Positions 10,383 to 44,800 of a stretch of DNA of 64,000 nucleotides are shown here, piece by piece. Below the pieces are notes generated by a model, which was not told where the DNA came from, ran no database searches, and saw only the letters and a list, made by a program, of their open reading frames with translations. Both the position numbers and the translations under genes were made by a program. Source of the stretch: Okamejei kenojei (taxonomy: Eukaryota). The DNA is taken from NCBI GenBank assembly GCA_035221665.1, contig CM069160.1:15376001-15440000 (forward strand), in the 5' to 3' direction. The stretch's first letter is position 1, and each line of letters starts with the position of its first letter.

Positions 10383-10734
10383 TTTAAACGATATACTCTT
10401 GGAAAGGGCCAGTCCGTCGACATGGGCCAACGCATCGACTGCCCGATCCATGACCGTGAATGGCCGCTTTGGACAGGCCGGTAGCGATTACAAACCCCAA
10501 GTTTAGTTCAGACATACAAATCGGAAACAGGCCCTTCAGCCCACCGAGGTCGCGCCGACCAGCGATTCCCCGCACACCCGCACTAACCTACACACACACA
10601 CACTGGGGGCAGTGTGCATTTCTCACAAGCCAATTAACCCACGAACCGATGGGTCTTTGGAGTGTGGGCGGAAACCGGAGATCCCGGAGATCCCGGAGAA
10701 AAAGCCACGCGGTCCCAAACCGCGGCCGTTCTTC

Positions 10735-10967
10735 AGGAAAAAGATAAGCGCGAGGTGACTCCAACAATAGTGGAATATCTTAATTCAATCAGTGAGAGCA
10801 CTTTGATTGTTTTTACAGATGGATCTAAAGATCCAGTTAGTGGGAGAGCTGGGTTTGGAGTGTATGCGGAGCAGCATGGGTTGAAGATTGGCCGACGCAT
10901 TTCTGATGGAAGCTCTGTTCTCACGACTGAATTAATGGCAATTCAATGGGCTCTATGTGTGGATTGA
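10735..10967 (+). mobile_element. RNase H fragment of an I/Nimb-type LINE
   Basis: LIVFTDGSKDPVSGRAGFGVY...ISDGSSVLTTELMAIQWAL has the RNase HI D and E motifs. Confidence 0.75.
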
Positions 10968-11779
10968 GGAATGGGGGGGGGGGGGGTGGGTGGGGGGGGG
11001 ATCGGGTAATAGGAGCTGCTCGCTGAATTTCCATTTTCCCTGTGTGGTTTATCCAGTGATGGTGGGGCCAGGCGCCATTGTGTGGATCCTGTCAGTGGCC
11101 GTGGGTGAGTAGGCTTTCTGTTTCTCAGTGGGGTCGCTCTTGGGTAGAGAGGGGCAGGAGGGGTAGTGGTGAGGGGTGGCGAAGGAGGCGTTGGGGTGCA
11201 ATTTTTTTTTTTTAGCGTTTTGCCAACTGTCCCGTACTAGCCGGGACATCCCGTATATTGGGCTAAATTGGTTTCGCCCCTTGTCCCGTATTTGACTGCA
11301 CACCTGGAGTATTGTGTGCAGTTTTGGTCCCCTAATTTGAGGGAGTGCAGCATAGGTTCACAAGGTTAATTCCCGTGATGGCGGGACTGTCATATGCTGA
11401 GAAAATGGAGCGGCTGGGCTTGTACACTCTGGAGTTTAGACGGATGAGAGGATATCTCATTGAAACATATATGATTGTCTATTGTTGGTCGGTGTGGGCA
11501 AGTTTGGGCTGGGAGGGTGGGGTGTGACTGTTTCCACACTGTGACTGCCACTCGTGGACTGTACACAAGAGGACAACAACGTGCTGAGTTAGCGCTCAGC
11601 GGGCCAGTCAGGCATCCCTGGAGAAACATGGACAGGCGAGGTCTCTGGTCGGGCCTGAAGGTCGTGACGCTGTGGCGGGAAACCGGTGAGAACAGAACAC
11701 AACGATAACAAACATAGGAAAAACGTCCGTAACCAGCGGGGGTCCCAAGTACCAAGTAAACTTTGCTTGCCGCCCGCAG

Positions 11780-12114
11780 GTGTTGTTCGCTGAGAAATAA
11801 TCGTAGGTCATTCAGGACACGTGCCACCATTGTGGCCACTGAAGGTGACTCGGTGATTACTCCGTGTCGTCACAACGCCACGGATCAAATATGGGCCTAC
11901 CGTTGGTTCAAGGGAGCCACAAACGGGATGTCTGTTTCCAATTATACCGGAGAATACAGAGGTCGTGTCAAAGTGCCGGATGCACCGTCTACAGACATGG
12001 ACGCTTCTATGCAATTGAATAAGGTGCGGATTAACGATTCCGGTCTGTACGTCTGTCAGGTGAAAACTATGATGAGCGAGGCATGTGGGACAGGGACGTA
12101 TCTCACGGTGAACG
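11780..12114 (+). CDS. Ig V-set exon 1 (germline-joined VJ type) of an NKp30/NCR3-like receptor
   Basis: EGDSVITPC-RHN...YRWFK...EYRGRV...ASMQLNKVRINDSGLYVCQV...CGTGTYLTVN; acceptor cccgcag ending 11779; phase-1 donor gtaagt at 12115; first ~40 nt appear frameshifted (VIQDT lies in another frame). Confidence 0.88.
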
Positions 12115-15639: not shown

Positions 15640-15972
15640 CGGGAAGAAACAAGTTCTTCACCGTGGAGCAAGGCCAGTCCAGAATAGTCGCGGATGAGGG
15701 CCAAGCTGTCCTCATGACTTGTACCCACAATGCCAATCGCTCTAGAGGTGCCAGCGAGTACAGCTGGCACAAGGATGGCAAACAAGTCTCCAATGAAACT
15801 CAGGAGTACGCAGGCCGAGTGATCGGGCCGCTCCAAGATGACTCTTTCAACACTTCTATACAACTGGTGGATGTGAGGCAGAGTGACTCTGGAGATTACT
15901 ACTGCAAGGTGCGGATAGAAGGACTCGGTGAGGCCGAGGGAGAAGGCGTGAGTCTGGAAGTGAACGGGACAG
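15640..15972 (+). CDS. Ig V-set exon 2 (germline-joined VJ type), strongly NKp30/NCR3-like
   Basis: Intact 333-nt phase 1-1 exon (ttttgcag / gtgagt): FTVEQGQSRIVADEGQAVLMTCTHN...YSWHKDGKQVSNETQEYAGRV...SIQLVDVRQSDSGDYYCKVRIEGLGEAEGEGVSLEV; CxVxxxGLGxxxGxG and VxNxTxEY/FxGR are motifs I recognise from NKp30. Confidence 0.93.
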
Positions 15973-17307: not shown

Positions 17308-17436
17308 GGACGGGGGGGGGGGAGATAAAACGTGTTCACCATTCTCCTGTTGATCCTGGCATTAGGCCTTGTTGGAAGGCTGCATCATTCCTCTTCGCCA
17401 TCCACCTCTGCAGGCAAATCCCACCAATAGCCAAAC
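17308..17436 (+). CDS. Transmembrane exon of the NKp30-like receptor (internal compensating frameshifts)
   Basis: Acceptor tttgtcttctccacag, donor gtaagg, 129 nt; hydrophobic run VFTILLLILALGLVG at 17332-17376, then FLFAIHLCRQ in the neighbouring frame; a G homopolymer precedes the shift. Confidence 0.7.
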
Positions 17437-21775: not shown

Positions 21776-24114
21776 GAAACTAATTGAAAAAAAAATATGC
21801 CTCTAGCCAGATGATTTTGGTACAGTAAGTAAGTTTTTATTGGCCAAGTATCACATACAAGGAATATTGCCTGGGCTTCCGCCCCAAAGTAACAACATGA
21901 CCATACAGTGACAGTTACGAATTGACTCAGAAAACACTAAACATTAATACTAATTAAAACATGAATGATAAAACACCATTGATCAAGCATGTGAACCACA
22001 AAATACCAGATCACAGGGAGGCAACAGATTTTTGGCTGTTGATAGAGCAATCTACACTGGATAAAAACTGGGTTTTATAAGACTCGGGCTGTGGCAGCTT
22101 TGACAGTCCGACGAGAGTCGCCTTCCAGAGGAAGTGAGTCAAAGAGTTTGTGGCCAGGGTGAGATGGGGTCAGAGATGATCTTGCCGGGCTCGCTTACGA
22201 GGCCGGATTCCGGCACCTGGGCCGTAGGTTGCCACCCCGGTCTTTACAATGTCAGGCTCATTGTGTGCACCCACCCCCCCCAATGTTTTAAAAAGCAATT
22301 TCGCGCCAGTGGCCCTTCGGTCCACAAATGTTTGTGGTCAAGCATGATGCCTGGTTGAATCTGGTTTCATACTGCCTTGTTCCTTGTGTCTTAATGTATA
22401 TTTTCATCTTTTTATATCCATTCTTTACAGGTGCTATTCTTGGATCAAAGGCTGGTGTGGTTGTACTACACACTGTTAACATTCAGTTTAACAACCTCCC
22501 TCTTCTCCCCTCTCCTCGATCAGGCAAGAGGTAGGCAGATTTCCAGAAGTGTGTAAACGCAATCTCCAGTATCTACGGACAGCTTTCTTCACAGCTGTTA
22601 ATCAGGCAACCTGAACCATCCCTACCACAACCAGTGTGCGGTCCTGAAATACTATCTAAGGTAGACAAAAATGCTGGAGAAAACTCAGTGGGTTGAGGCC
22701 TGCATCTATGGGCGAAGGATAATCAGGCAACAATTTTGGGGCTGAAACCTTCTTCAGAACCGAAACGTTTTGGCCGATTTCCTTCGCTCCATAGATTCTG
22801 CATCACCCGCTGAATTTCTCCAGCATTTTTGGTTCTACTTCGATTTTCAACATCTGCAGTTCTTCCTTAAACACTCTGGAACTACTATTCTACTCGCTGG
22901 TCGGACCCTGGGACTAGACTTGAGTGGACTTTACTGGCTTTACCTTGCAGCTAAACTTTATTCCATTACCCATGTATTTCGTAACAATGTAAGTGGGTTT
23001 GATCGTAATCATGTATTGTCTTTCCGCTGACTGGTTAAGCAACGCGGGCTCAGAGCTTTTCACAGTTACCTCGGTACACGTGACAATAAACTGAATAGGG
23101 AACAAAGTTATCAACTTTTGGTGGCATAAAAACAGGAAAGCAGACTATTATTTAAAATGGTGGGCCGATTAGGAAAAAGGGGAGATGCAGCGAGAACTGG
23201 GTTTGTCAATGGTACACCAGTCATTGAAAGTAGGCATGCAGGTGAGCAGGCAGTTGAAAAAAAAGCGAATGGTATGTTAGCTTTTTCATAGCAAAAGGAT
23301 TTGAGTACAGGTGCGCAGGGAGGGGTTTTTTTAAACTTCAGTTGTTTACAGGGTCTTGTGAGACCACCAACTGGAGTATTGCGTGCAGTTTTGGTCTCCA
23401 ATATCTGAGGAAGGACATTATTTGCATAGAGGGGAGTGCTGGAGGAAGGTTCACCAGGTCTGATTCCTGGGATGTCTGGACTGTCTTCTCTGAAGAAAGA
23501 CTGGATAGACTTGGTTTATACTCTCTGTAATTTTGGAGATTAAGGAGGGGATCTCTTATAGAAACTTCACAAAATTCTTAAGGGGTTGGACACGGCTTGA
23601 TGCAGGAAGATTGTTCTCCGTTGTTGGGGCAAAAGTCCAGGACCAAGGGGTCATCAGCTTAAGGAGATAAAGGGGGAAGGAAAATCCTTTATGACCGAGA
23701 TGAGAAAGACTTTTTTCACACAGAGAGTGGTGAGTCTTCTGGAACTCTTGCCCACAGAGGGTAGTTGAGGCCAGTTCATTGGCTATATTTAAGAGTGAGA
23801 TTGGATGTGGCCCTTGGTGGCTAAGGGGTCAGAGGGTATGGGAGAGAAGGCTGGTACGGGGATACTGGTTGGATGATCAGCCATGATCATATTGTATGGC
23901 GGGTGGCAGGCTGACAGGGCTGATTATGCACTATCCTGCACCTAATTTCTATGTTTCTTTGTTTATATGAGTATAATTGTTGTGATAAAAGAAGCGCACA
24001 TGCAGAGATACTCCCTCGTTCTCTCATTTGACACCACAAGCCTGCTGAGTAACTAGCGGGTCAGGAATTCTCTGGAGGAGGAATGGAAAGGAGTAGGTGA
24101 GAACGCATTTAGAA

Positions 24115-24910: not shown

Positions 24911-25411
24911 TGTAGGGTTTTAGAATATTGTGCTGTTCTGGGCACCAAGGTTATAGGAAATGTTATTGTAAGCTTGAAAGGGTTCAGAGCAGATATACGT
25001 AGGATTGGTAGATTAATTGGCTTACAAGTATAAATGTAAAAAATTGTCCCTAGTGTGCATAGGATAGTGTTAATATTTTCGGGGGATCACTGGTCGGCAC
25101 GGACTCGGATGGGCCCGAAGGAGCCTGTTTTCCGTCTCAGTATCTCTAAAACTAAACGGTTTCAATCTCCAAAACAATTGGCAAGTTACTAAACTGTAAC
25201 TAGCCGCCCTAATATGGATGCCACAAGTGAGTTTACTTTCTTGCTATTAATTATTTAGACAGTTCAGAGGACACAGAGAAGATCTTACGTGGATGTTGCC
25301 AGGACTAGAGGGTTGTGTGCTACAGCGGAGAGGTTGAGTAGGCTGGGGTCTCTCATTCCATGGAGCGCAGGAGGATGGGGGAGAATCTTATGAAACATAG
25401 AAACATAGAAA

Positions 25412-30025: not shown

Positions 30026-30064
30026 TTTGTGTGGCATTTCCTCTGACTCCAGTGGCGAAAGACG
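30026..30064 (+). CDS. Candidate cytoplasmic micro-exon of the receptor
   Basis: tgttcttttccttatgctcccag | 39 nt | gtaagt, in a unique island; phase-1 reading CVAFPLTPVAKD; reading frame uncertain. Confidence 0.5.
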
Positions 30065-31189
30065 GTAAGTAACGCCAGAGTTTTACCCAGAGCTGAACCT
30101 GTGGTTTTTTACAAGGCCCTGTACCAGAATGGTGCCTGGATTAGAGTATCCCAGCCACAGGGAGCCGTTGGCCAATGAAACAATAGACAACAGTGTGCGG
30201 ATGTAGGCCTTTCGGGCCCTTCGAGCCAAGCACCCCGCCATTCAATGTGATCATGGCTGTTCATCCCAATCAGTATCCCGATCTGACTTCTCCCCATGTC
30301 CCTGACTCCGCTATCTTTAAGAGCTTCTATCTTAGCTCTCTCTTGACATATCCAGCGAACCGGCCCTCCAACTCTGAGGCAGAGAATTCCACAGACTCAC
30401 ACTCTGTGGGTGAAAAAGTGTATCCTCTCATCTCCGTTCTAAATGCCTACCCCTTATTTCTTAAAAATGTGGCCCTTGGTTCTGGACTCCCCCAAACATT
30501 GGGAACCTGTTTCCTGCCTCGGCTGTTTCCAATCCCTTAATTGCATCAGAGGGCTGCGGTCGGTGGGAGGCCGGTTCTTGGTATACTTTCAAGGGAGAGA
30601 AGATAGAGGCTCTTAAAGATAGCGGGACGTCACCCGTAATCAAGATCGAAACCCGGGTCTTGGCGCTGTGAGGCAGCAACTCTACGCTGTGCACTGAGGG
30701 CCGCACTGGTCAATAGACAATAGGTGCAGGAGTAGGCCATTCAGCCCTTATATTTGCAACTCTGTGTTTGCCACAGCAAAATAATTGGAGGGGCTTGGCG
30801 GGTGATACAGGAATGCGGGTACGGTTTCTATGACTAAGTACAGTGGGCGGGGCTTGATTAATTTGCCTACACCTTAATATGTACATAATTAATTTTGCAG
30901 CTGATCCAACTTTACCTCTTGCGGTGGACGAAGCCGGAACTCGGTGATGAGTCCTCAATTGCAACGGACCCGCCGCGATGGTTGAATCCTGAGATAAATT
31001 GCGGAGAAAGGCCGGGGCGGGAACGGCCCAGTGTTAACTCCTGTTGACTTTGCAACAGAAATGGGGTGGAAAAATGGATCCTGCAACATTGACTCGGGGC
31101 GGACCCCAAGGGGGGGGGGGGCGGAAAGTGGGGAAAATAGTAGGGATGGGCAAGGAAGGAATGCAGCATGTTTAAGAAGGAACTTTGCA

Positions 31190-33374: not shown

Positions 33375-33418
33375 GAATCCCAGCTGGCAAACCCATCGAT
33401 CTACCTTCCCATGGAAAG
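33375..33418 (+). CDS. Candidate cytoplasmic exon, ESQLANPSIYLPME (YxxM)
   Basis: ctttctttgcctttgacag | 44 nt | gttggt; the phase-0 reading joins the next exon in frame. Confidence 0.55.
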
Positions 33419-35179
33419 GTTGGTACAGATCCAGCAACCGTGAATGTCATTCACGAACCATCGTTACACCCGCTGATAGACACAGAGAGCTGGAGTAACT
33501 CAGCGGGTCAGGCAGCATCTCTGGAGCGAAGGAATGGGTGACGTTTCAGGTTCACACCCTTCTTCAGACCGCTGCTAGTCTGCTTTACTTTAGGCTTCAG
33601 AGATACAGCGTGGAAACAGGCCCTTCGGCTCACCGGGTCCATGCCGACCAGCGATCATCCCATACACTAGCACTATCCTACACACTCTAGGGATAAGTTA
33701 CAATTTGCGGAAGTCAATAAACCTGTGCCTCTTTGGAGTGTGGGAGGAGACCAGAGCATCCGGAGAAAACCCACGCAGTCACAGGGAGAATGTGCAAACT
33801 CCACTATTCAAATGTCGTTTGAGTCAAATCTTACCCAAATAGTCCCGGTGAGCAGACAATAGACAATAGGTGCAGGAGTAGGTCATTCGGCCCTTCCAGT
33901 CAGCACCGCCATTTATATAGAAACATAGAAACATAGACAATAGGTGCAGGAGGAGGCCATTTGGCCCTTCGAGCCAGCACCGCCATTCATTGTGATCATG
34001 GCTGATCGACACCAATCAATAACCCCGTGCCTGCCTTCTCCCCAATATCCCTTGACTCCACTTAGCCCCTAGAGCTCTCTATCTAACCCTCTCTTAAATC
34101 CATCCAGTGACTTGGCCTCCACTGCCCTATGTGGCAGGGAATTCCATAAATTCACAACTCTCTAGGCGATAACGTTTTTTCTCACCTCAGTCTTAAATGA
34201 CCTCCCCTTTTATTCTAAGACTGGTGATCTAAGATTTAATGTGATCATGGCTGATCATACACAATCAGTACCCCGTTCCTGCCTTCTCCCCTTATCCCTT
34301 GACCCCGCTATCTTTAAGAGCCCTATCTATCTCTCTCTTGAAAGTATCCAGAGAATTGGCCTCCACCGCCCTCTGAGGCGAGGAATTCCACAGACTCACA
34401 AACTCTCTGTGAGAAAAAGTGTTTCCTCGTCTCCGTTCTTAATGGCTTACCCCTTATTCTTAAACTGTGTGTGGCCCCTGGTTCTGGTCTCCCCCAACAT
34501 CGGGAACACGTTTCCTGCCTCTAGCGTGTCCAAACCCTTAATAATCTTCTATCTTTCGGGGGGGCGTCAAGGTCCGATAGTTGAGTTTAGTTTAATTGAG
34601 AGATACAGCGCGGAAACAGGCCCTTCGGCCCTCCGAGTCTGGGCCGACCAGCGATCCACCCCGTACATTAGCACTATCCCACACACACACACTGGGGAAC
34701 AACTTTACAATTGACAGAAGCCAATTAACCTGCAAATACGCACGTATTTGGAGTGTGGGAGGAAACCCGAGCACCCAGAGAAAACCCACGCAGGTCGCGG
34801 GGAGAGGGTACAAACTCCATGCAGAAGTAACCCGTGGTCGGGATCGAACCGGGCGCTGCCAGGCAGTGACTCTACCGCTGCGCCACCGTGCCGCCCCATG
34901 GGGGGACCCAGGTGGAAGCGGGGGCCACGTTTTCTCCCTCTGGGCTGATCATCTCGCTCCCCGCTTCTCCTTGAAGCCTGAGGTCTTCAAGGCTACCGCC
35001 CAATCCAGATGGAGGCTTGGACGCCGCACAGCCATTAAACCAACCTCCACGGCACCATGCTCACGAGCCCTCCAACTAGAAGAGTAGAAACACCAAGAGA
35101 CTCACCAGAGAAGAACCGGATAAAAAAGAAAAGAAAAGGAATAGGAATCGCGACGACGAAGAATAAGGAACAGAAAACC

Positions 35180-36060
35180 CCTCTCCTCCCCCTCCTCTCC
35201 TCTCCAGGCCCCAGGCACCCCGAACATCTCCATGAGACTCCCCTCTCCTCACAGATATCCCCTCTCCCCGAAACACCCTCACACTCTCCACCCTCTCTCC
35301 TCTCCACTCCACCTCCTCTCCACCCCTCTCCCTTCTACCTCCTCCCTTCACCCCTCCTCCCCTCCTACCCCTTCCCCAGCACGCCCCCTTCCACGCTCCT
35401 CTCCACCCTTCCCCTCCCCTCTCCTTCTTCCTTTCTCCCCTCCCCTCTCCTCTCCCCTTCCCCTCATCTCATTCTCCCCCCCCCTTCCCTCTGCCCTCCC
35501 CCTCCCCCCTCATCTCATCTCCTACTCCCCTCTCCTTTCTCCCCTCCCCTCTACTCCCCTCCCCTCCTCCTCCTCCTCCTCTCCTCTCCTCCCCTGCCCT
35601 AACTTCCCTCTCCCCTCTCCATTCCTCCCCCCTCCCCCTCTCCTCCCCATCCCTCCACCCCCCCTGCTCCCTCCCTCCCTCTCTCCCTCCTCACCATCCG
35701 TCCCTCCTCCATTCCCTCCCATCCTCCTCTCCCCCTCCTTTCTTCCTCTTCTCCCTCCATTCCTCCTCCTCTCCCTCTCCTCATCCCTCCCTCCTCCTCT
35801 CCTCCCTACCTCTCACCATCCCTCCCTCCTCCACTCCTCACGCCTTTCCTCCTCTCATCCCTCCTCCACTCCCTGCCTCCCATCCTCCTCTCCCCCCTCG
35901 TTTCTTCCTCTCCTCCCGCCTTTCCTCCTCCCCCTCCCCCTCCCTCCCCTCATCCCTCCCTCTCCCCCTCTCCCCTCTCTTCCCTCCCCACTCTCCCTCC
36001 CCCACCATCCCCTCCTTCCGGATCTCCGTCCGCATCCCTTCGCTCCTGGATGTCCCCCCC
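35180..36060. repeat. C/T-rich low-complexity tract (~0.9 kb)
   Basis: Almost pure polypyrimidine on the plus strand. Confidence 0.95.
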
Positions 36061-36149
36061 CATTCACTGCCGCCCACCCAATGTCTCCGTCCCACTGTTG
36101 CCTTCAGCTGCAGCGATGGCCACTGACGTTTTCTCCTCCGCTCCCCCAG

Positions 36150-36193
36150 ATATGAAGACCCAGAGGAACATAATCCACATCTCCCACGGAAAC
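36150..36193 (+). CDS. Candidate cytoplasmic exon, (R)YEDPEEHNPHLPRK
   Basis: Branch-point-like cactgac, then gttttctcctccgctcccccag | 44 nt | gtaagc; phase 2 in matches the previous exon. Confidence 0.6.
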
Positions 36194-36929
36194 GTAAGCA
36201 TGAACCTACCATTACATTCCTCCTATCCTTCCAACATCAGAGGCCATTCAGCCCATTGTCTACTCATTTCCTTCTGACCGTTTCATAAGGCGTAGGAGCC
36301 AAATTAGACAATAGACAATAGGTGCAGGAGTAGGCCATTCGGCCCTTCGAGCCAGCACCACCATTCACTGTGATCATGGCTGATCATCCACAATCAGTAC
36401 CCCGTTCCTGCCTTCTCCCCATATCCTCGGACTCCACTATTTTTAGAGCACTATGTAGCTCTCTCTTGAAAGCATCCAGAGAACCGGCCTCCACCACCCT
36501 CTGAGGCAGAGAATTCCACAAACTCACAACTCTCTGTGAGAAAAAGTGTTTCCTCGTCTCCGTTCTAAATGGTTTACCATTTATTCTTAAACTGTGTGGC
36601 CCCTTGTTCTGGACTCCCCCAACATCGGGAACATATTTCCTGCCTCTAGCGTGTCCAAACCTTTAACAATCTTATGTGTTTCAATAAGATCCCCTCTCAT
36701 CCGTCTAAGCTCCAGAGTGTACAAGCCCAGCCGCTCCATTCTCTTCCCAGCTGTTAGGCCATTCAGCCCATTGTCTACCCATGGCTGGCATCTATCGTTC
36801 CCCCACAACCCCATTCTCCTGCCTTCGCCCCGTGACTTTTGACACCTTTACTAATCTAGAATTTGTCAGTTTCTGCTTTAAAATGACCCACTGACTTGTC
36901 CTCGACAGCCGTCTGTGGCAATGAATTGC

Positions 36930-37545
36930 ACGTGTCCCAGATAGGACAATGACATTCTTGCTTGCTGCGGCACAACAGAATATTGTAAGCATAAATACAG
37001 ATCAGATCAGTGTGTCTATATAGCATAGACCATATATATATACACATAAATTAACAGATAAAGTACAATAGGATTTTACAGTTCAGAGTTTGTTTGAAGT
37101 TGTGTTTGATAGCCTGATGGCTGTGGGGAAGTAGCTATTCCTGAACCTGGATGTTGCAGATTTCAGGCTCCTGTACCTTCTACCTGAAGGCAGCGGGGAG
37201 ATGAGTGCGTGGCCAGGATGGTGTGGGTCCTTGATGATGCTGCCAGCCTTTTTGAGGCAGCGACTGCGATAGATCCCTTCGATGGTGGGGAGGTCAGAGC
37301 CGGTGATGGACTGGGCAGTGGTCACAACTTTCTGTAGTCTTTTCCGCTCCTGGGCGCTCAAGTTGCCGAACCAGGCCACGATGCAGCCGGTCAGCATGCT
37401 CTCTACTGTGCAACTGTAGAAGATCAGGAGAGTCCTCCTTGACAGACCGACTCTCCGTAATCTTCTCAGGAAGTAGAGGCACTGATGTGCTTTCTTTACG
37501 ATTGCATCAGTGTGCTGGGACCAGGAGAGATCTTCGGAAACATTC
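36930..37545 (-). mobile_element. Rex1/Babar-type LINE 3' fragment
   Basis: SEDLSWSQHTDAIVKKAHQCLYFLRRLRR...VESMLTGCIVAWFGN...RFRNSYFPTAIR. Confidence 0.85.
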
Positions 37546-39201
37546 TCTGACAAAATAAATTCCTCCCCCTCAGGGCCCTTCTTCTCAAACTGCCTCGGCA
37601 GAGCCAGCAGCATAATGAAGGACGAGTCGCACCCCGGCCACTCCACCTCTTTCCCATCGGGCAAAAGGTGCAAAGGTGTGAAAAACGCACACCTCCAGAT
37701 TCAGGGCCAGCTTTTTCCCGGTTGTTATCAGGCAACTGAACCATCCTACCACAACCAGAGAGCAGTGCTGAACTCCTCATTGGAGCTTCTCAGACTATCT
37801 TTGATTGAACTTTGCTGGCTTTACGTTGCACTAAACACTATATGTATCTGCACAGCGTAAACGGCCTCATTGTAATCGGTTACAGTCTAAGTTTAGAAGG
37901 ATGAGAAGGGATCGTATTGAAACATATAAGATTATTAAGGTAGACAAAAGTGCTGGAGAAACTCAGCGGGTGAGGCAGCATCTATGGAGCAAAGGAAAGA
38001 GGCAACGTTTTGGGTCGAGACCCTTCTTCAGAACTGCCTCTGCAGTTAAGTTCCTTCTTAAGATTATTAACGGCTTGGACACGCTAGAGGCAGGAAACAT
38101 GTTCCCGATGTTGGGGGAGTCCGGAACCAGGGGCCACACAGTTTAAGAATAAGGGGTAGGCCATTTTGAAAGGAGACGAGGAAATGCTTTGTTTCTGTGG
38201 GAGGAAACCAAAGCACCTGGAGAAAACCCCGCGCGGTCACTGGGAGAACGTGCAAACTCTGTACAGACAGCACCCGAGGTTTAAGAATAAGGGGTAAGGC
38301 CATTTAGAACGGAGACAAGGAAACACTTTTTCTCACAGAGTTGTGAGTCTGTGGAATTCTCTGCCTCAGAGGGCGGTGGAGGCCGGTTCTCTGGATACTT
38401 TCAAGGGCGAGCTAGATAGGGCTCTTAAAGATAGCGGAGTCAGGGGATAGAAACATAGAAACATAGAAAATAGGTGCAGGAGTAGGCCATTCGGCCCTTC
38501 GAGCCTGCACCGCCATTCAATATGATCATGGCTGATCATCCAACTCAGTATCCTGTACCTGCCTTCTCTCCATACCCCCTGATCCCTTTAGCCACAAGGG
38601 CCACATCTAACTCCCTCTTAAATATAGCCAATGAACTGGCCTCAACTACCTTCTGTGGCAGAGAATTCCACAGACTCACCACTCTCTGTGTGAAAAATGA
38701 TCTTCTCATCTCGGTCCGAAAAGACTTCCCCCTTATCCTTAAAATGTGACCCCTTGTTCTGGACTTCCCCAACATCGGGAACAATCTTCCTGCATCTAGC
38801 CTGTCCAACCCCTTAAGAATTTTGTAAGATCCCCCCTCAATCTCCTCAATTCCAGCGAGTCTATCCAGTCTTTCTTCATATGGAAGTCCTGCCATCCCAG
38901 GAATCAGTCTGGTGAACCTTCTCTGTACTCCCTCTATGGCAAGAATATGGTGAGAAGATACGGGGAGAAGGCAGGAACGGGGTACTGATTGGGGATGATC
39001 AGCCATGATGACATTGAATGGCGGTGCTGGCTCAAAGGGCTCCTATTGTCGATTGTCTATTGTCTTTCTGGTGACTGGATAGCACGCAACTTAAAGCTTT
39101 TCACTGTACCTCGGTACACGTGGCAATAGACTGAACTGAGCTGAACTTCTCTTCTGCGCTGTTGTCCTCCATCGCCTCTGAATCTAATCCTTCTGCTCCA
39201 A

Positions 39202-39266
39202 CATCATCCACGGACGAAGGGATTACAATACGCGATTATCGTTTCAAAAACCTCCCAACACATTCG
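39202..39266 (+). CDS. Candidate ITIM-bearing cytoplasmic exon (damaged in this sequence)
   Basis: SSTDEGIT followed, after one extra A, by YAII (tacgcgattatc); pyrimidine tract upstream, but the acceptor reads ctccaa rather than ctccag; donor gtgggg. Confidence 0.4.
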
Positions 39267-40239
39267 GTGGGGGATGATGAGTTTGGAGTGAGTTGTTTAT
39301 TTATCTACGCTTTTACTGTCTGGAGTCAAGGGGTCCTGCAGCATGGAAACAGTCCCTTGGGCACAGCTTGCCCATGCTGACCCATGATGACCAATCTACA
39401 CTAGTCCCACCTGCCCGTGCGCTTAGCCCATATGCCTCCAAACCAGGGGTCATAGAAACATAGAAACATAGAAAATAGGTGCAGGAGTAGGCCATTCGGC
39501 CCTTCAAGCCTGCACCGCCATTCAATGTGATCATGGCTGATCATCCAACCTCAGTATCCTGTACCTGCCTTCTCTCCATACCCCCTGATCCCTTTAGCCA
39601 CCAAGGGCCACATCTAACTCCCTCTTAAATACAGCCAATGGAACTGGCCTCAACCTTCTGAGGCAGAGAATTCCACAGACTCACCACTCTCTATGTGAAC
39701 AAAAAAATTTATCATCTCGGCCCTAAAAGACTTCCCCCTTATCCTTAAACTGTGACCCCGTGTTCTGGACATCCCCAACATCGGGAACAATCTTCCTGCA
39801 TCTAGCCTGTGCAACCCCTTAAGAATTTTTTTGTAAGTTTCTATAAGATCCCCCTCAATCTTCTAAATTTCTAGCGAGTACAAGTCGAGTCTATCCAGTC
39901 TTTCTTCATATGGAAGTCCTGCCATCCCAGGAATCAGTCTGGTGAACCATCTCTGTACTCCCTCAATGGCAAAAATGTCTTTCCTCAGATTAGGAGACCA
40001 AAACTGTACGCAATACTCCAGGTGTGGTCTCCACAAGGCCCTGTACAAACTGCAGTTAGAACCTCCCTGCTCCTATACTCAAATCCTTTTGCTAGAAAGC
40101 TAACATAACCATTCGCTTTCTTCACTGCCTGCTTTGCACCTCTGCATGCCTACTTTCAATGACTGGTGTACCATGACACCCAGTTGCATCTCCCCTTTTC
40201 CTAATCGGCCACCATTCAGATAATAGTCTACTTTTCCTA

Positions 40240-40730
40240 CAGCCCCGGGCTGAATGCGGCCCGTAACCCGATATTACCCCGGCCCGCAGGCGGATTTTGT
40301 GCCGTAATTATCCGTCCCGCATTACCTCCATCATCTCCGGTACCTGCCGGGCCTGATGCACGGTGACGCCAGGAGGCCTACGCTGGTGGTCGCGATGGCG
40401 GAGCAGCCGAGCGGTGACTGTACCGCATCCTGCGCAAAGCCGCCAGCCCGGGCACCCTCTGTGTCTGGGCTTCACTGTCAGTAGGCCGGGATTGTCAGTA
40501 GGGCCGGGGACAAGTGAGTGTGAGTATTTGAGCCACCGCCCTTTCAGGACAGAGCCAATGCAATGGGCCGTGGGTGCGCCGTGTTGGTGAGCGACGGTAA
40601 CCAGTGGCCAGCGCTCCGGGTGGCGTCCTGGGTGGGATCCATGTGAGCACGTGATAGATGTGGCCCGCCATCCGCTCACAGGCATGCGTCCGCCCCCTAC
40701 GCAGACCAAGGTTGTCCACCCCTGTTCTAA
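40240..40730. mobile_element. Possible hAT-type non-autonomous element fragment
   Basis: GC-rich, starts with gcggcccg/ggcccgc motifs and ends aaggttgtccacccctg (reverse complement caggggtggacaacctt, a hAT-like terminus); other terminus not found. Confidence 0.4.
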
Positions 40731-41772
40731 ACCTTGCCTATCCATCTAAGGGGCCTCGACCCGAAACGTCGCCCATTCCTTCTCTCCAGAGATGCTGCCT
40801 GTCCCGCTGAGTCACTCCAGCATTTTGTGCCTATGCTCGCTTTAAGCCAGCATCTGCAGTTATAGAGTCATAGAGTGATACAGAGTGGAAACAGGCCCTT
40901 CGGCCCACCTTGCCCACACCGGCCACCAATGTCCCAGCTGCTCTAGTCTCACCTGCTTGCGCTTGGCACATAACCCTCCAAACCTGTCCTATCCATGTAC
41001 ACGTCCAAGTGTTTCCTAAACGATTGGAGAGACCCAGCCTCAACTACCTCCTCCGGCAGCTCGTTCCATACACCCACCACCCTCTGTGTGTAAAAGCTAC
41101 CCTCGGATTCCTATGAAATCTTTTCCCTTCACCTTGAACCTAGGTCCTCTGGTCCCTCGATTCCCCTACTCTGGATAAAATATTCTGTGCATCAACCGAT
41201 CTATTCCTCTCGTGTCACCCTGTCCAAATGACTTTTAAGTGTTGTTTAGTAACCCAACCTGCCTCAACTACCTCCCTGGCAACTCGTTCCATACACCCAG
41301 AGTAACAGCGTCTAGATAACGGTCCACTGGTACATCCCAAGCTAAGCTTACCCCGTGCACTGGTTTAGTTTTAGAGATTACAGTTTTCAGCCCACCAGGT
41401 CCGCATCGACCAGCGATCCCCTGCACATTAACACTAACCCACACCCACCAGGACAATTCTTACATTCAAACCAAGCCAATTAACCCACAAACCTGCACGT
41501 CTTTTGAGTGGGGGGAGGAAACCGAAGATCGCGGAGAAAAACCCGCGCAGGTCACGGGGAGAACGTGCAAACTCCGCACAGACAGCGCCCGTGGTCGGGA
41601 TCGAGTGCCCGGGTCTCCTGCGCCGTGAGGCAGCAACTCTAACCGCTGCGCCATCGCGCGCCGCCCTTAAAGTAGGAATGGCAGAAGTAGAGTTTAGAAA
41701 GTTAAAGTTAGAATGGCACCGAGCCAGAGCCCATCTTCTCATTAACCCCGAGTTTACCTCTTTGCACTGCAG

Positions 41773-41811
41773 GCATAAAGAATGACGGATATGATGAGCT
41801 GAACGTGACGG
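41773..41811 (+). CDS. Candidate cytoplasmic exon, IKNDGYDELNVT (YxxL)
   Basis: tttacctctttgcactgcag | 39 nt | gtaaga; only the phase-1 frame is open. Confidence 0.65.
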
Positions 41812-44800
41812 GTAAGAACCACAAGGAACAAAGCGCATGCAGCGGACACACAGCCTAAAGAGCCGCAATCGACAACAGGTGCAGGATCAGGCCATTCAGC
41901 CCTTCTAGCCAGCACCGCCATTCAATGCGATCATGGCTGATCATTCCCCAATCAGTACCCCGTTCCTGCCTTCTCCCCGTATCCCCTGACTCCGCTATCT
42001 TTAAGAGGCCTATCCAGCTCTCTCTTGAAAGCATCCAGAGAACCGGCCTCCACCGCCCTCTGAGGCAGAGAATTCCACAGACTCACCACTCTCTGTGAGA
42101 AAAAGTGTTTCCTCGTCTCCGTTCTAAAATGGCTTACCCCTTATTCTTAAACTGTGTGTGTGTGTGGCCCCTGGTTCTGGACTCCCCCCAACATCGGGGA
42201 ACATGTTTCCTGCCTCTAGCGTGTCCAAGCCCTTAAAAATCTTATATGTTTCAATGAGATCCCCTCTCATCCTTCTAAACTCCAGAGTGTACAAGCCCAG
42301 CCGCTCCATTCTCTCAGCATACGATAGTCCCGCCATCCCGGGAATTAACCTTGTAAACCTACGCTGCACTCCCTCAATAGCAAGAATGTCCTTGCCTCAA
42401 ATTAGGGGACCAAAACTGCACACAATACTCCATGTGTGGTCTCACTGGGGCTCTGATAATAACTGCAGAAGGACCTCTTTGCTCCTAGAATCTGATTCGT
42501 GCTTGTTCTAAAGGCCAAAATGCCATTCGCTTTCTTCACTGCCTGCTGTACCTGCATGCATACTTTCATAGACAAGAACCCCCAGATCCTGTTGTTGTAC
42601 TTCCCCTTTTCCCAACTTGAGAGACGCCATTTAGATAGTAATCTGCTTCCTGTTTTTGCTACCAAAGTGGATAACCTCACATTTATTCCGCATTAAACTT
42701 CATCTGCCATGCATCTGCCCCACTCCCCCAACCTGTCCAAGTCACCCTGCATTCTCATAGCATCCTCCTCACAGTTCACACTGCCACTGAGGTAGGTCCA
42801 GCTTTGTGTCATCTGCAAATTTGCTAATGGCCAAACCCCTTATTCGTAAACTGTGGCCCCTGGTTCTGGACTCTCCCGACATCGGGAACATGTTTCCTGC
42901 TCTAGCGTGTCCAACCCTTAACAATCTTTATATGTTTTCCTCTTAGACTCCAGAACTCCAATAAGTCCTTCTCAGTGCAAAACAGTGTGCCATTCTGGCT
43001 CAAGATCATAGATAGGTCCCCGCCATCAGGGTGCCCCCCTTAAAGACCTTAACTTGTGTAAACCTATACGCTGCACTCCCTCAGCAAGATGACAAAACGT
43101 CCACCTTAAGGGGGCCAAAACGCACAACAAACTCAGGGTGTGGTCTAGGCATGCAGGTTAGGGCCATGAGCTGTACACAACTGCCAGGGTCTTGGGAGGA
43201 CCTCTTCCTCTCCTGTAAGGCTCTCTCTCCCTGATCCACAGCAAAAAACGGCCTGAACCCGGAAGAAAACTAGATCAATGACCGGATAAGTCACCAGAAG
43301 AGATCTACTGGAACTCTCTTTAGTTGTCCAAGAGTTTATGTCGGGGGATCAGGAGGTGCTGAGGGTAGAGAGAGGGGTGAAAAATGTAAAGGGGGCTATG
43401 AGAGGCATGCTTTTCCCCACTGAGGCTGGGTGTATGGAATGAGCTGCCAGAGGAGGTGTAGATTCTCCATAGGGGGCGCCGTGATATAGAAACATAGAAA
43501 ACATAGGCAATAGGTGCAGGAGTAAGGCCATTCGGCCCTTCGAGCCTGCACGCCATTCAATTTAAGATCATGGCTATATCATCCAACTCAGTATCCCTGT
43601 ACCTGCCTTCTCTCCATACCCCATGATCGTTCCCTTTAGCCACAAAGGCCCACATCTAACTCCCTCTTAAATATAGCCAACGAACTGGCCTCCAACTACC
43701 TTCTGTGGCAGTGAATTCCACAGATTCACCCTCTCTGTGTGAAAAACTCTCTGTTTTTCTCAACTCGGTCCGAAAGACTTCACCCTTATCCTCAACTGTG
43801 TGACCCCTTAGTTCTGGAACCCCCTTAGCCTGTCCAACCCTTAAGTATTTAGTAAGTTCTATAAGATCCCCCCTCAATCTTCTAAATTCTGATGGCAGAC
43901 GGTCTGTCTGTTTTTGTAATTTTTTTTTGTTATTTTTCGTCTGTTTAAAAAAAAGTAGTTTGTTTTGGAGATTTCTCAGTATTTTTATGTGGGGGAGGGG
44001 TAGGGTTGTTAGGGGGAAACTTTTCCCATACACTTCCTGGCGAGGATGCGACTATTCTCCGAGCCTCGGCCCTCGCTCCCCCCCCCCCCCCTTGTTGCGG
44101 CCTAACCTGGATTAGTGCGGCCTTTCCTGCCGGGGACCAGGACCTGGACCAGAGCTTCAAGCATCGAGGAGCCCTGGACCCCTTTGCCGAGTGGACCGCC
44201 AGTGTGAATCTCCGCCCGGCTCGGCCTGTGGACTTCGGGACCCGAGGTCTCCGGTAAGAAGTGGCCGACTTGGAAGTCCTGTGAGCCGCGCTGAGAATGT
44301 TTTTTTCGTTCCGACGTCTGGATTCCCATCATCCCGGCGGAGAGGGCCTGAGCATCGGGACTCCCACAGCGGCGACTGCGGAGGCCTCAGTAGGCCCCGA
44401 CCACGCGGGTGAAGATTGTTTAAGGGCTTTGGACACGCTAGAGGCAGGAAACATGTTCCCGGTTGATGGTGGAGTCAGAACAGGGGCCACACACACAGTT
44501 TTCAAGAAATAAGGAGTAAGTCATTAGAACGGAGGAGACGAGGAAACACTTTTTCTCACAGAGAGTGGTGAGTCTGTGGAATTCTCTGCCTCAGTGGAGG
44601 CCGGTTCTCTGGATGCTTTCAAGAGAGAGCTAGATAGAGCTCTTAAAGAAAGCGGAGTCAGGAGATATGGGGAGAAGGCAGGAACGGGGTACTGATTGGG
44701 GATGATCAGCCACGATCACATTGAATGGTGGTGCTGGCTCGAAGGCCTACTTCTGCACCTATTGGCTATTGTCTATTGTAACAAGAGGAAGAGGACTGAA

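Follow-up and report, generated by a model that had tools for sequence, protein, structure and literature searches.

A 64,000-nucleotide window of the Okamejei kenojei genome, spanning positions 15376001-15440000 of contig C30 (CM069160.1) within a 2.76-Gb genome, contains a series of micro-exons that, judging from the sequence, probably encode the cytoplasmic tail of an NKp30/NCR3-like receptor with two immunoglobulin (Ig) V domains, located on a contig that also bears major histocompatibility complex (MHC) genes. The receptor would be mainly inhibitory through an ITIM (immunoreceptor tyrosine-based inhibitory motif), with a YxxM motif and a terminal YxxL motif modulating its output. The original prediction had read some of these micro-exons as an immune-receptor tail with four tyrosine motifs, one in roughly every exon. 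The tail itself and the YxxM, ITIM and YxxL motifs stand; the YxxP motif (Nck/Crk type) probably does not, and motifs occur in only 3 of ~10 tail exons.

Homologous tails and the 14-exon gene model

HMMER searches matched predicted proteins of Mobula, Hypanus, Hemitrygon, Scyliorhinus, Heterodontus, Chiloscyllium, Carcharodon and Stegostoma, such that the closest relatives found are rays and sharks; word-index protein searches with the V2 domain alone gave no match. Among the 166 proteins collected, 11 contain both PM-type and ELN-type tail segments. One tail from each of seven species was compared, leaving out the isoforms P0154 and P0166 as well as P0152 and P0160, which are devoid of the middle segment. 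YxxM, [IV][QH]YxxI/L and Y[DE]ELN are kept in all seven tails, a conservation that is partly circular for the first and last motifs, because the homologues were picked for the YxxM and YDEL exons, and not for the ITIM. The YDEL tyrosine is located 28-30 residues downstream of the ITIM in these proteins.

Two ray proteins, XP_062903900.1 of Mobula and XP_059825197.1 of Hypanus, both named 'uncharacterized', share with the window gene the three tyrosines, spaced as they are there, and are likely its orthologues. The leader-V-V-transmembrane-tail layout of the gene is also that of P0004 (Mobula) and P0161 (Hypanus), and the matched V stretches are ~53% identical to P0004. The Mobula and Hypanus proteins differ in having a longer ITIM exon and, by eye, Gln or Gly in place of the transmembrane Glu.

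The gene likely comprises 14 exons, which encode a long tail behind two V domains and a transmembrane segment, along a splice path predicted from the sequence. The exons are as follows, in window coordinates; copy D is the second copy of the locus described below.

11059..11104, + strand: leader exon of 46 nt with ATG, ending in phase 1 at a GTGAGT donor; by eye like the homologue leaders
11780..12114, + strand: V1 exon, VJ-type Ig V domain; best PDB match NKp30, E 1.8e-8
15640..15972, + strand: V2 exon, Ig V domain; Pfam V-set above cut-off; best PDB match NKp30, E 9e-9
17308..17436, + strand: transmembrane exon with a Glu in the middle of the span; phase 1 to 1 in copy D, the window sequence being noisy
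22431..22450, + strand: tail exon 1, 19 nt and phase 1 to 2 in copy D, donor garbled in the window; five copies
25141..25226, + strand: probable tail exon 2, with acceptor and GTGAGT donor; predicted in copy D to be 81 nt long, phase 2 to 2; similar to the ray homologue by eye
30026..30064, + strand: tail exon 3, 38 nt and phase 2 to 1 in copy D
30901..30945, + strand: tail exon 4, 41 nt and phase 1 to 0 in copy D; end approximate in the window
33375..33418, + strand: tail exon 5 with YxxM (YLPM), phase 0 to 2, identical in both copies; frame fixed by the homologues
34977..35020, + strand: likely tail exon 6, for which phase 2 to 1 is required; sequence poor in both copies
36150..36193, + strand: tail exon 7, presumed phase 1 to 0 from phase logic; no tyrosine in that frame
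39204..39287, + strand: tail exon 8 with the ITIM IQYAII, phase 0 to 2; 80 nt in copy D
41773..41811, + strand: tail exon 9 with DGYDEL, phase 2 to 1; 35 nt in copy D, the window being 4 bases longer
43242..43273, + strand: last coding exon with TAG stop; top tblastn match of the ray C-terminus in copy D, E 0.04

V1 and V2 are each a single AG..GT exon ending in a GxG-containing strand. The 5' part of V1 is frameshifted in the window through extra bases, and one paralogue is open over 330 nt.

Copy D, an inverted and nearly identical copy of 11.7-78.6 kb in window coordinates, lies at C30 15492240-15548327, flanked by runs of 500 N at 15491722 and 15549194. It probably represents the other haplotype, left unmerged and scaffolded as a separate contig, or else a recent duplicate, and was used as a second reading of the locus. 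The V2 regions differ by 5 substitutions over 421 nt with 0 indels. Elsewhere the differences are mostly indels, with the window carrying surplus bases in 16 of the 26 500-nt tiles, and agreement ranges from 497/500 columns in the best tile to 397/560 in the worst stretch. Indel errors thus affect the window, and the assembly is noisy here. From the transmembrane exon to the stop, copy D is in phase at every junction bar one base in exon 6. A third reading, of the ITIM exon, came from X19, a run from another organism in which one 215-nt DNA contig of depth 79 covers the exon.

The frameshifts could instead be real and the gene a recent pseudogene, as the window is shifted in V1, the transmembrane exon and several tail exons, and the V1 match in copy D is damaged (81% identity). 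This is very unlikely, because the indel positions differ between the two copies and introns contain them at equal density, and because X19 sides with copy D.

Reading frames of the tail exons

Frames were tested by scoring exon translations against the homologue tails and comparing the scores with those of shuffled sequences. Exon 33375-33418, a 44-nt AG..GT exon, was proposed in phase 0 to 2 with the motif YLPM, and this is borne out: the score of the YLPM frame was reached by 0/1000 shuffles, those of the other two frames by 769/1000 and 98/1000. A scheme in which this exon and 36150-36193 are mutually exclusive phase 1-to-0 exons was rejected, since the homologues fix the first at 0 to 2. 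The two exons are both 44 nt long and, by eye, share 10 of their 12 last bases, which may be chance or the trace of an ancient duplicated exon whose frame has since changed.

The exon bearing the ITIM was originally started at 39202, with an extra A before YAII, and both details needed revision. A CAG acceptor precedes 39204 in copy D and likewise in the X19 contig, the window having lost its G, so the exon starts at 39204 and reads IQYAII. The surplus base is a T at ~39223, one of four extra T in the window relative to copy D; the X19 contig is without bases 39223 and 39244 and has G for A at 39218. IQYAII is in frame in copy D and X19 and fits the ITIM consensus (I/V/L/S)xYxx(I/L/V). In copy D the score of the phase 0-to-2 frame was reached by 0/1000 shuffles. 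The uncorrected open frame of the window through this exon was rejected, its score being reached by 903/1000. Also rejected was a U12-type AT-AC intron to account for the apparent AC acceptor, since the donor upstream is a GT and the acceptor in copy D is CAG. In a further run, X21, one contig covers both flanks of the exon (39203 and 39284) and joins them through undefined letters in place of the 80 bases between; the exon may be diverged or deleted in that organism. Two runs presumed to be RNA, X1 and X4, gave no coverage of this exon, a blank that counts neither way.

For 41773-41811, read earlier as DGYDELNV, the YDEL motif is real, with 0/1000 shuffles reaching its score in copy D; the exon boundaries were less accurate, the stretch being 4 bases longer than in copy D, where the start is in phase 2.

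The direct join of 33418 to 36150 in the original prediction likely missed an exon. In all seven homologues a 12-residue segment with its flanks directly follows YxxM; it is LKTF-like and ends in M followed by D or G. When the 2.7-kb intron of copy D was scanned, the top match, LRTF versus the homologue LKTF, was found directly after a pyrimidine-rich CAG, at a place corresponding to window 34977-35020, which is therefore the likely missed phase 2-to-1 exon. One homologue, P0165, ends in VMGK just past the exon-6-like segment, consistent with read-through past a phase 1 donor. A 44-nt exon 6 would place 43 codons between the YxxM and ITIM tyrosines, the same as in both rays, whereas the direct join gives 29, below the 36-43 of all seven homologues. 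The exon is at the edge of the worst-sequenced, C/T-rich stretch. Against its assignment, 45 nt lead to a weak GTCACT donor in copy D and the window has no GT, while the matching homologue segment implies 38 nt; taken alone, its score was reached by 53/1000 shuffles in copy D and 460/1000 in the window. A strict splice-consensus scan of 33420-36140 gave no candidate exon in either copy.

If exon 6 is read in phase 2 to 1, exon 36150-36193 reads in phase 1 to 0 and is free of tyrosines. It is indeed a 44-nt AG..GT exon identical in copy D, as originally described; the phase 2-to-1 frame proposed for it, with the YxxP motif YEDP, found no support. Local-alignment scores did not separate its frames and did not favour the tyrosine-free one, which was matched by 790 versus 477 of 1000 shuffles. 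An end-to-end score, chosen after the local result was known, was reached in the tyrosine-free frame by 9/2000 shuffles against the two rays and 81/2000 against all seven homologues, and in the YEDP frame by 1747/2000 and 1221/2000, respectively. Among 10000 shuffles of this exon, 416 contained YxxP in an open frame and 960 contained any Yxx[PMLIV]. No YxxP occurs between YxxM and the ITIM-like motif in the seven homologue tails.

After a direct join the frame stays open through YEDP, and with the CAG acceptor it meets a stop 23 codons into the ITIM exon. YEDP and the ITIM could consequently not be in one protein, unless the AG at 39218-39219 were used. Exon 6 might have decayed in this lineage or be usually skipped, in which case the product of the 33418-36150 join would contain YxxM and YEDP, end inside the ITIM exon without ITIM and YDEL, and represent either a truncated activating-type tail or a decayed transcript. 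That neither copy has a clean exon 6 donor and that the joined frame is open would agree with this. It is nonetheless unlikely, as copy D retains undamaged ITIM, YDEL and last exons in the conserved frames, the ITIM frame is also kept in X19, and exon 6 borders the stretch where the two copies agree worst. Alternatively, a shifted acceptor such as AG 39218-39219, which is found in both copies, would bring the open YEDP frame and the ITIM into register and yield all four motifs in one protein. This is highly improbable: the CAG before 39204 comes first and follows a pyrimidine tract, X19 has G for A at 39218, and, besides the missing YxxP, the spacing of the tyrosines would be far shorter than in any homologue. 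The tail is best described by the predicted path through exon 6, running 33418 to 34977-35020, 36150 (tyrosine-free), 39204, 41773 and 43242.

Relationship to NKp30/NCR3 and other receptors

In searches of 177,635 PDB sequences, V1 and V2 placed human NKp30 (NCR3) at ranks 1-4, and the family profile placed it at ranks 2-5, behind one diabody. The homologue P0165 is labelled 'Natural cytotoxicity triggering receptor 3' by a source. The genome search gave 15 MHC class I matches, every one of them on C30, at 1.5-8.5 Mb, with the gene at 15.39 Mb; a search for MHC class II beta, which had no positive control, gave no match. A multigene family of NCR3 (NKp30) in sharks was reportedly described by Kinlein et al. 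in 2021, and the window gene resembles it in that its V exons are non-rearranging, VJ-type, closest to NKp30, clustered and on the MHC contig. NKp30 is described as a VJ gene in the MHC (PMC10751288), and NCR3 as a VJ gene that is linked to the MHC and does not rearrange (PMC12227049, PMC10751288); eight accessions from the nurse shark, MT914154-914161, are listed (PMC12227049). No description of this tail was found in the passages covered by the literature search, and the 2021 shark NCR3 study or its supplements may already describe such tails. The gene is likely a new member of an elasmobranch NCR3-like family, predicted to be inhibitory with two modulating motifs.

Human NKp30 has one Ig domain, a charged transmembrane residue pairing with adaptors that contain an immunoreceptor tyrosine-based activation motif (ITAM), and no signalling tail of its own (PMC6514059). 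In contrast, the window gene has two V exons, about ten tail exons and three tyrosine motifs. Its transmembrane segment may also differ: in copy D an Arg is found only just before the hydrophobic span and none within it, and a Glu is located inside the span. This mid-span Glu is seen in all six translated copies of the exon and in the Heterodontus homologues P0032 and P0152, and is possibly a dimer or adaptor contact.

An Ig domain combined with an ITIM, as in this gene, is found in BTLA, PD-1, G6b-B and NKp44-1. The present gene differs from them in its two V domains, in V sequences closer to NKp30, and in its tail, where nothing like the TxYxxV/I switch motif, which binds SAP, was seen. BTLA mixes activating and inhibitory motifs. 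As leads, the Atlas scores of the Mobula protein for BTLA-like, NCR3-like and G6b-B clusters are all 0.95-0.96. The CD28/CTLA4 family has a single extracellular V domain and mostly a proline-containing CDR3 motif (PMC11599192), unlike this gene with two V domains and no proline in either CDR3-like loop.

Proposed signalling, paralogues and implications

The V domains would bind a ligand on the cell surface, possibly one similar to B7-H6, leading to phosphorylation of the tail by Src-family kinases. The phosphorylated ITIM, probably with the YDEL tyrosine, would then recruit the tandem-SH2 phosphatases SHP-1/2 and dampen activation, and the phosphorylated YxxM could add PI3K p85, YxxM being a putative PI3K site in CD28 (PMC11599192).

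With the same gene model, signalling might be mainly positive, the ITIM being secondary to PI3K recruited through YxxM and to Syk recruited through DGYxxL. The letters DGYxxL, present here and in Mobula, match the hemITAM consensus, which is placed amino-terminally on C-type lectin-like receptors (PMC3819593); here they stand C-terminally, on an Ig receptor of type I. Since DGYxxL is found in 1/7 homologues (with YGY in five and FEY in one where this one has DGY) and the ITIM tyrosine in 7/7, such a receptor appears quite improbable and mainly inhibitory signalling is preferred.

Further points weigh against the preferred reading. The homologues are database gene predictions, and many relatives have short or different tails. 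The NKp30 E-values are modest, ~1e-8, and the MHC class I genes are 7-14 Mb from the gene, a linkage at the level of the contig. An ITIM match can also be silent, as the ITIM of NKp44-1 does not recruit SHP (PMC6514059).

Genome-wide, V2 gives 17 matches, all on C30 at 14.35-15.82 Mb, and 465 kb examined contain 7 leader, 10 V1, 6 V2 and 5 transmembrane matches plus a sixth partial transmembrane match, counts that unmerged haplotypes may inflate. Within these 465 kb, the tail exons after the first occur twice each, in the window and in copy D, and a genome-wide DNA search found the ITIM exon in these two places only. Paralogues at C30 15.24-15.37 Mb and 15.81 Mb contain leader, V and transmembrane exons without the later tail exons, and no tails of their own were located. 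In the other transmembrane copies the span begins with one or two Arg, which suggests that these paralogues may be activating, adaptor-coupled partners. At C30 14.35-14.61 Mb, four more distant V exons, 31-35% identical to V2, are probably further NCR3-like subtypes. Just upstream of the leader exon, an open frame on the + strand at window ~10720-10960 contains an FTDGS motif, typical of ribonuclease H, and is probably a retroelement fragment.

In P0152 and P0160 the PM segment is joined straight to the ELN segment, and both are without the YxxM tyrosine. This join implies that the three exons between form an in-frame cassette. Together with the restriction of the later tail exons to the window and copy D, and the presence of the transmembrane exon in five or six copies, it leads to a wider and rather doubtful proposal: that the NKp30 family of elasmobranchs forms a cluster of paired receptors within the MHC, whose long-tailed member could drop the ITIM module by an in-frame three-exon skip (phase 2 to 2), switching from inhibition to co-stimulation, and whose tail-less Arg-bearing paralogues would signal through adaptors. 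Were this so, docking sites of the PI3K, SHP and Syk type would be built into the long-tailed member, and mammalian NKp30 would represent the activating half that survived.

Micro-exon tails with mixed motifs are common in Ig receptors, so the architecture itself is not surprising. The YxxP motif serves as a caution, as a missed exon combined with indel errors produced a motif that was plausible and is probably false. Database proteins named 'uncharacterized' gain a testable role. The three conserved tyrosine motifs would enable the receptor to dampen or tune immune cells. NKp30, an MHC-encoded VJ-type receptor, has been discussed as a relative of the antigen-receptor precursor. If a conserved YxxM-ITIM-YxxL branch indeed stands beside Arg-bearing paralogues, the NKp30 family would once have held both inhibitory and activating members.

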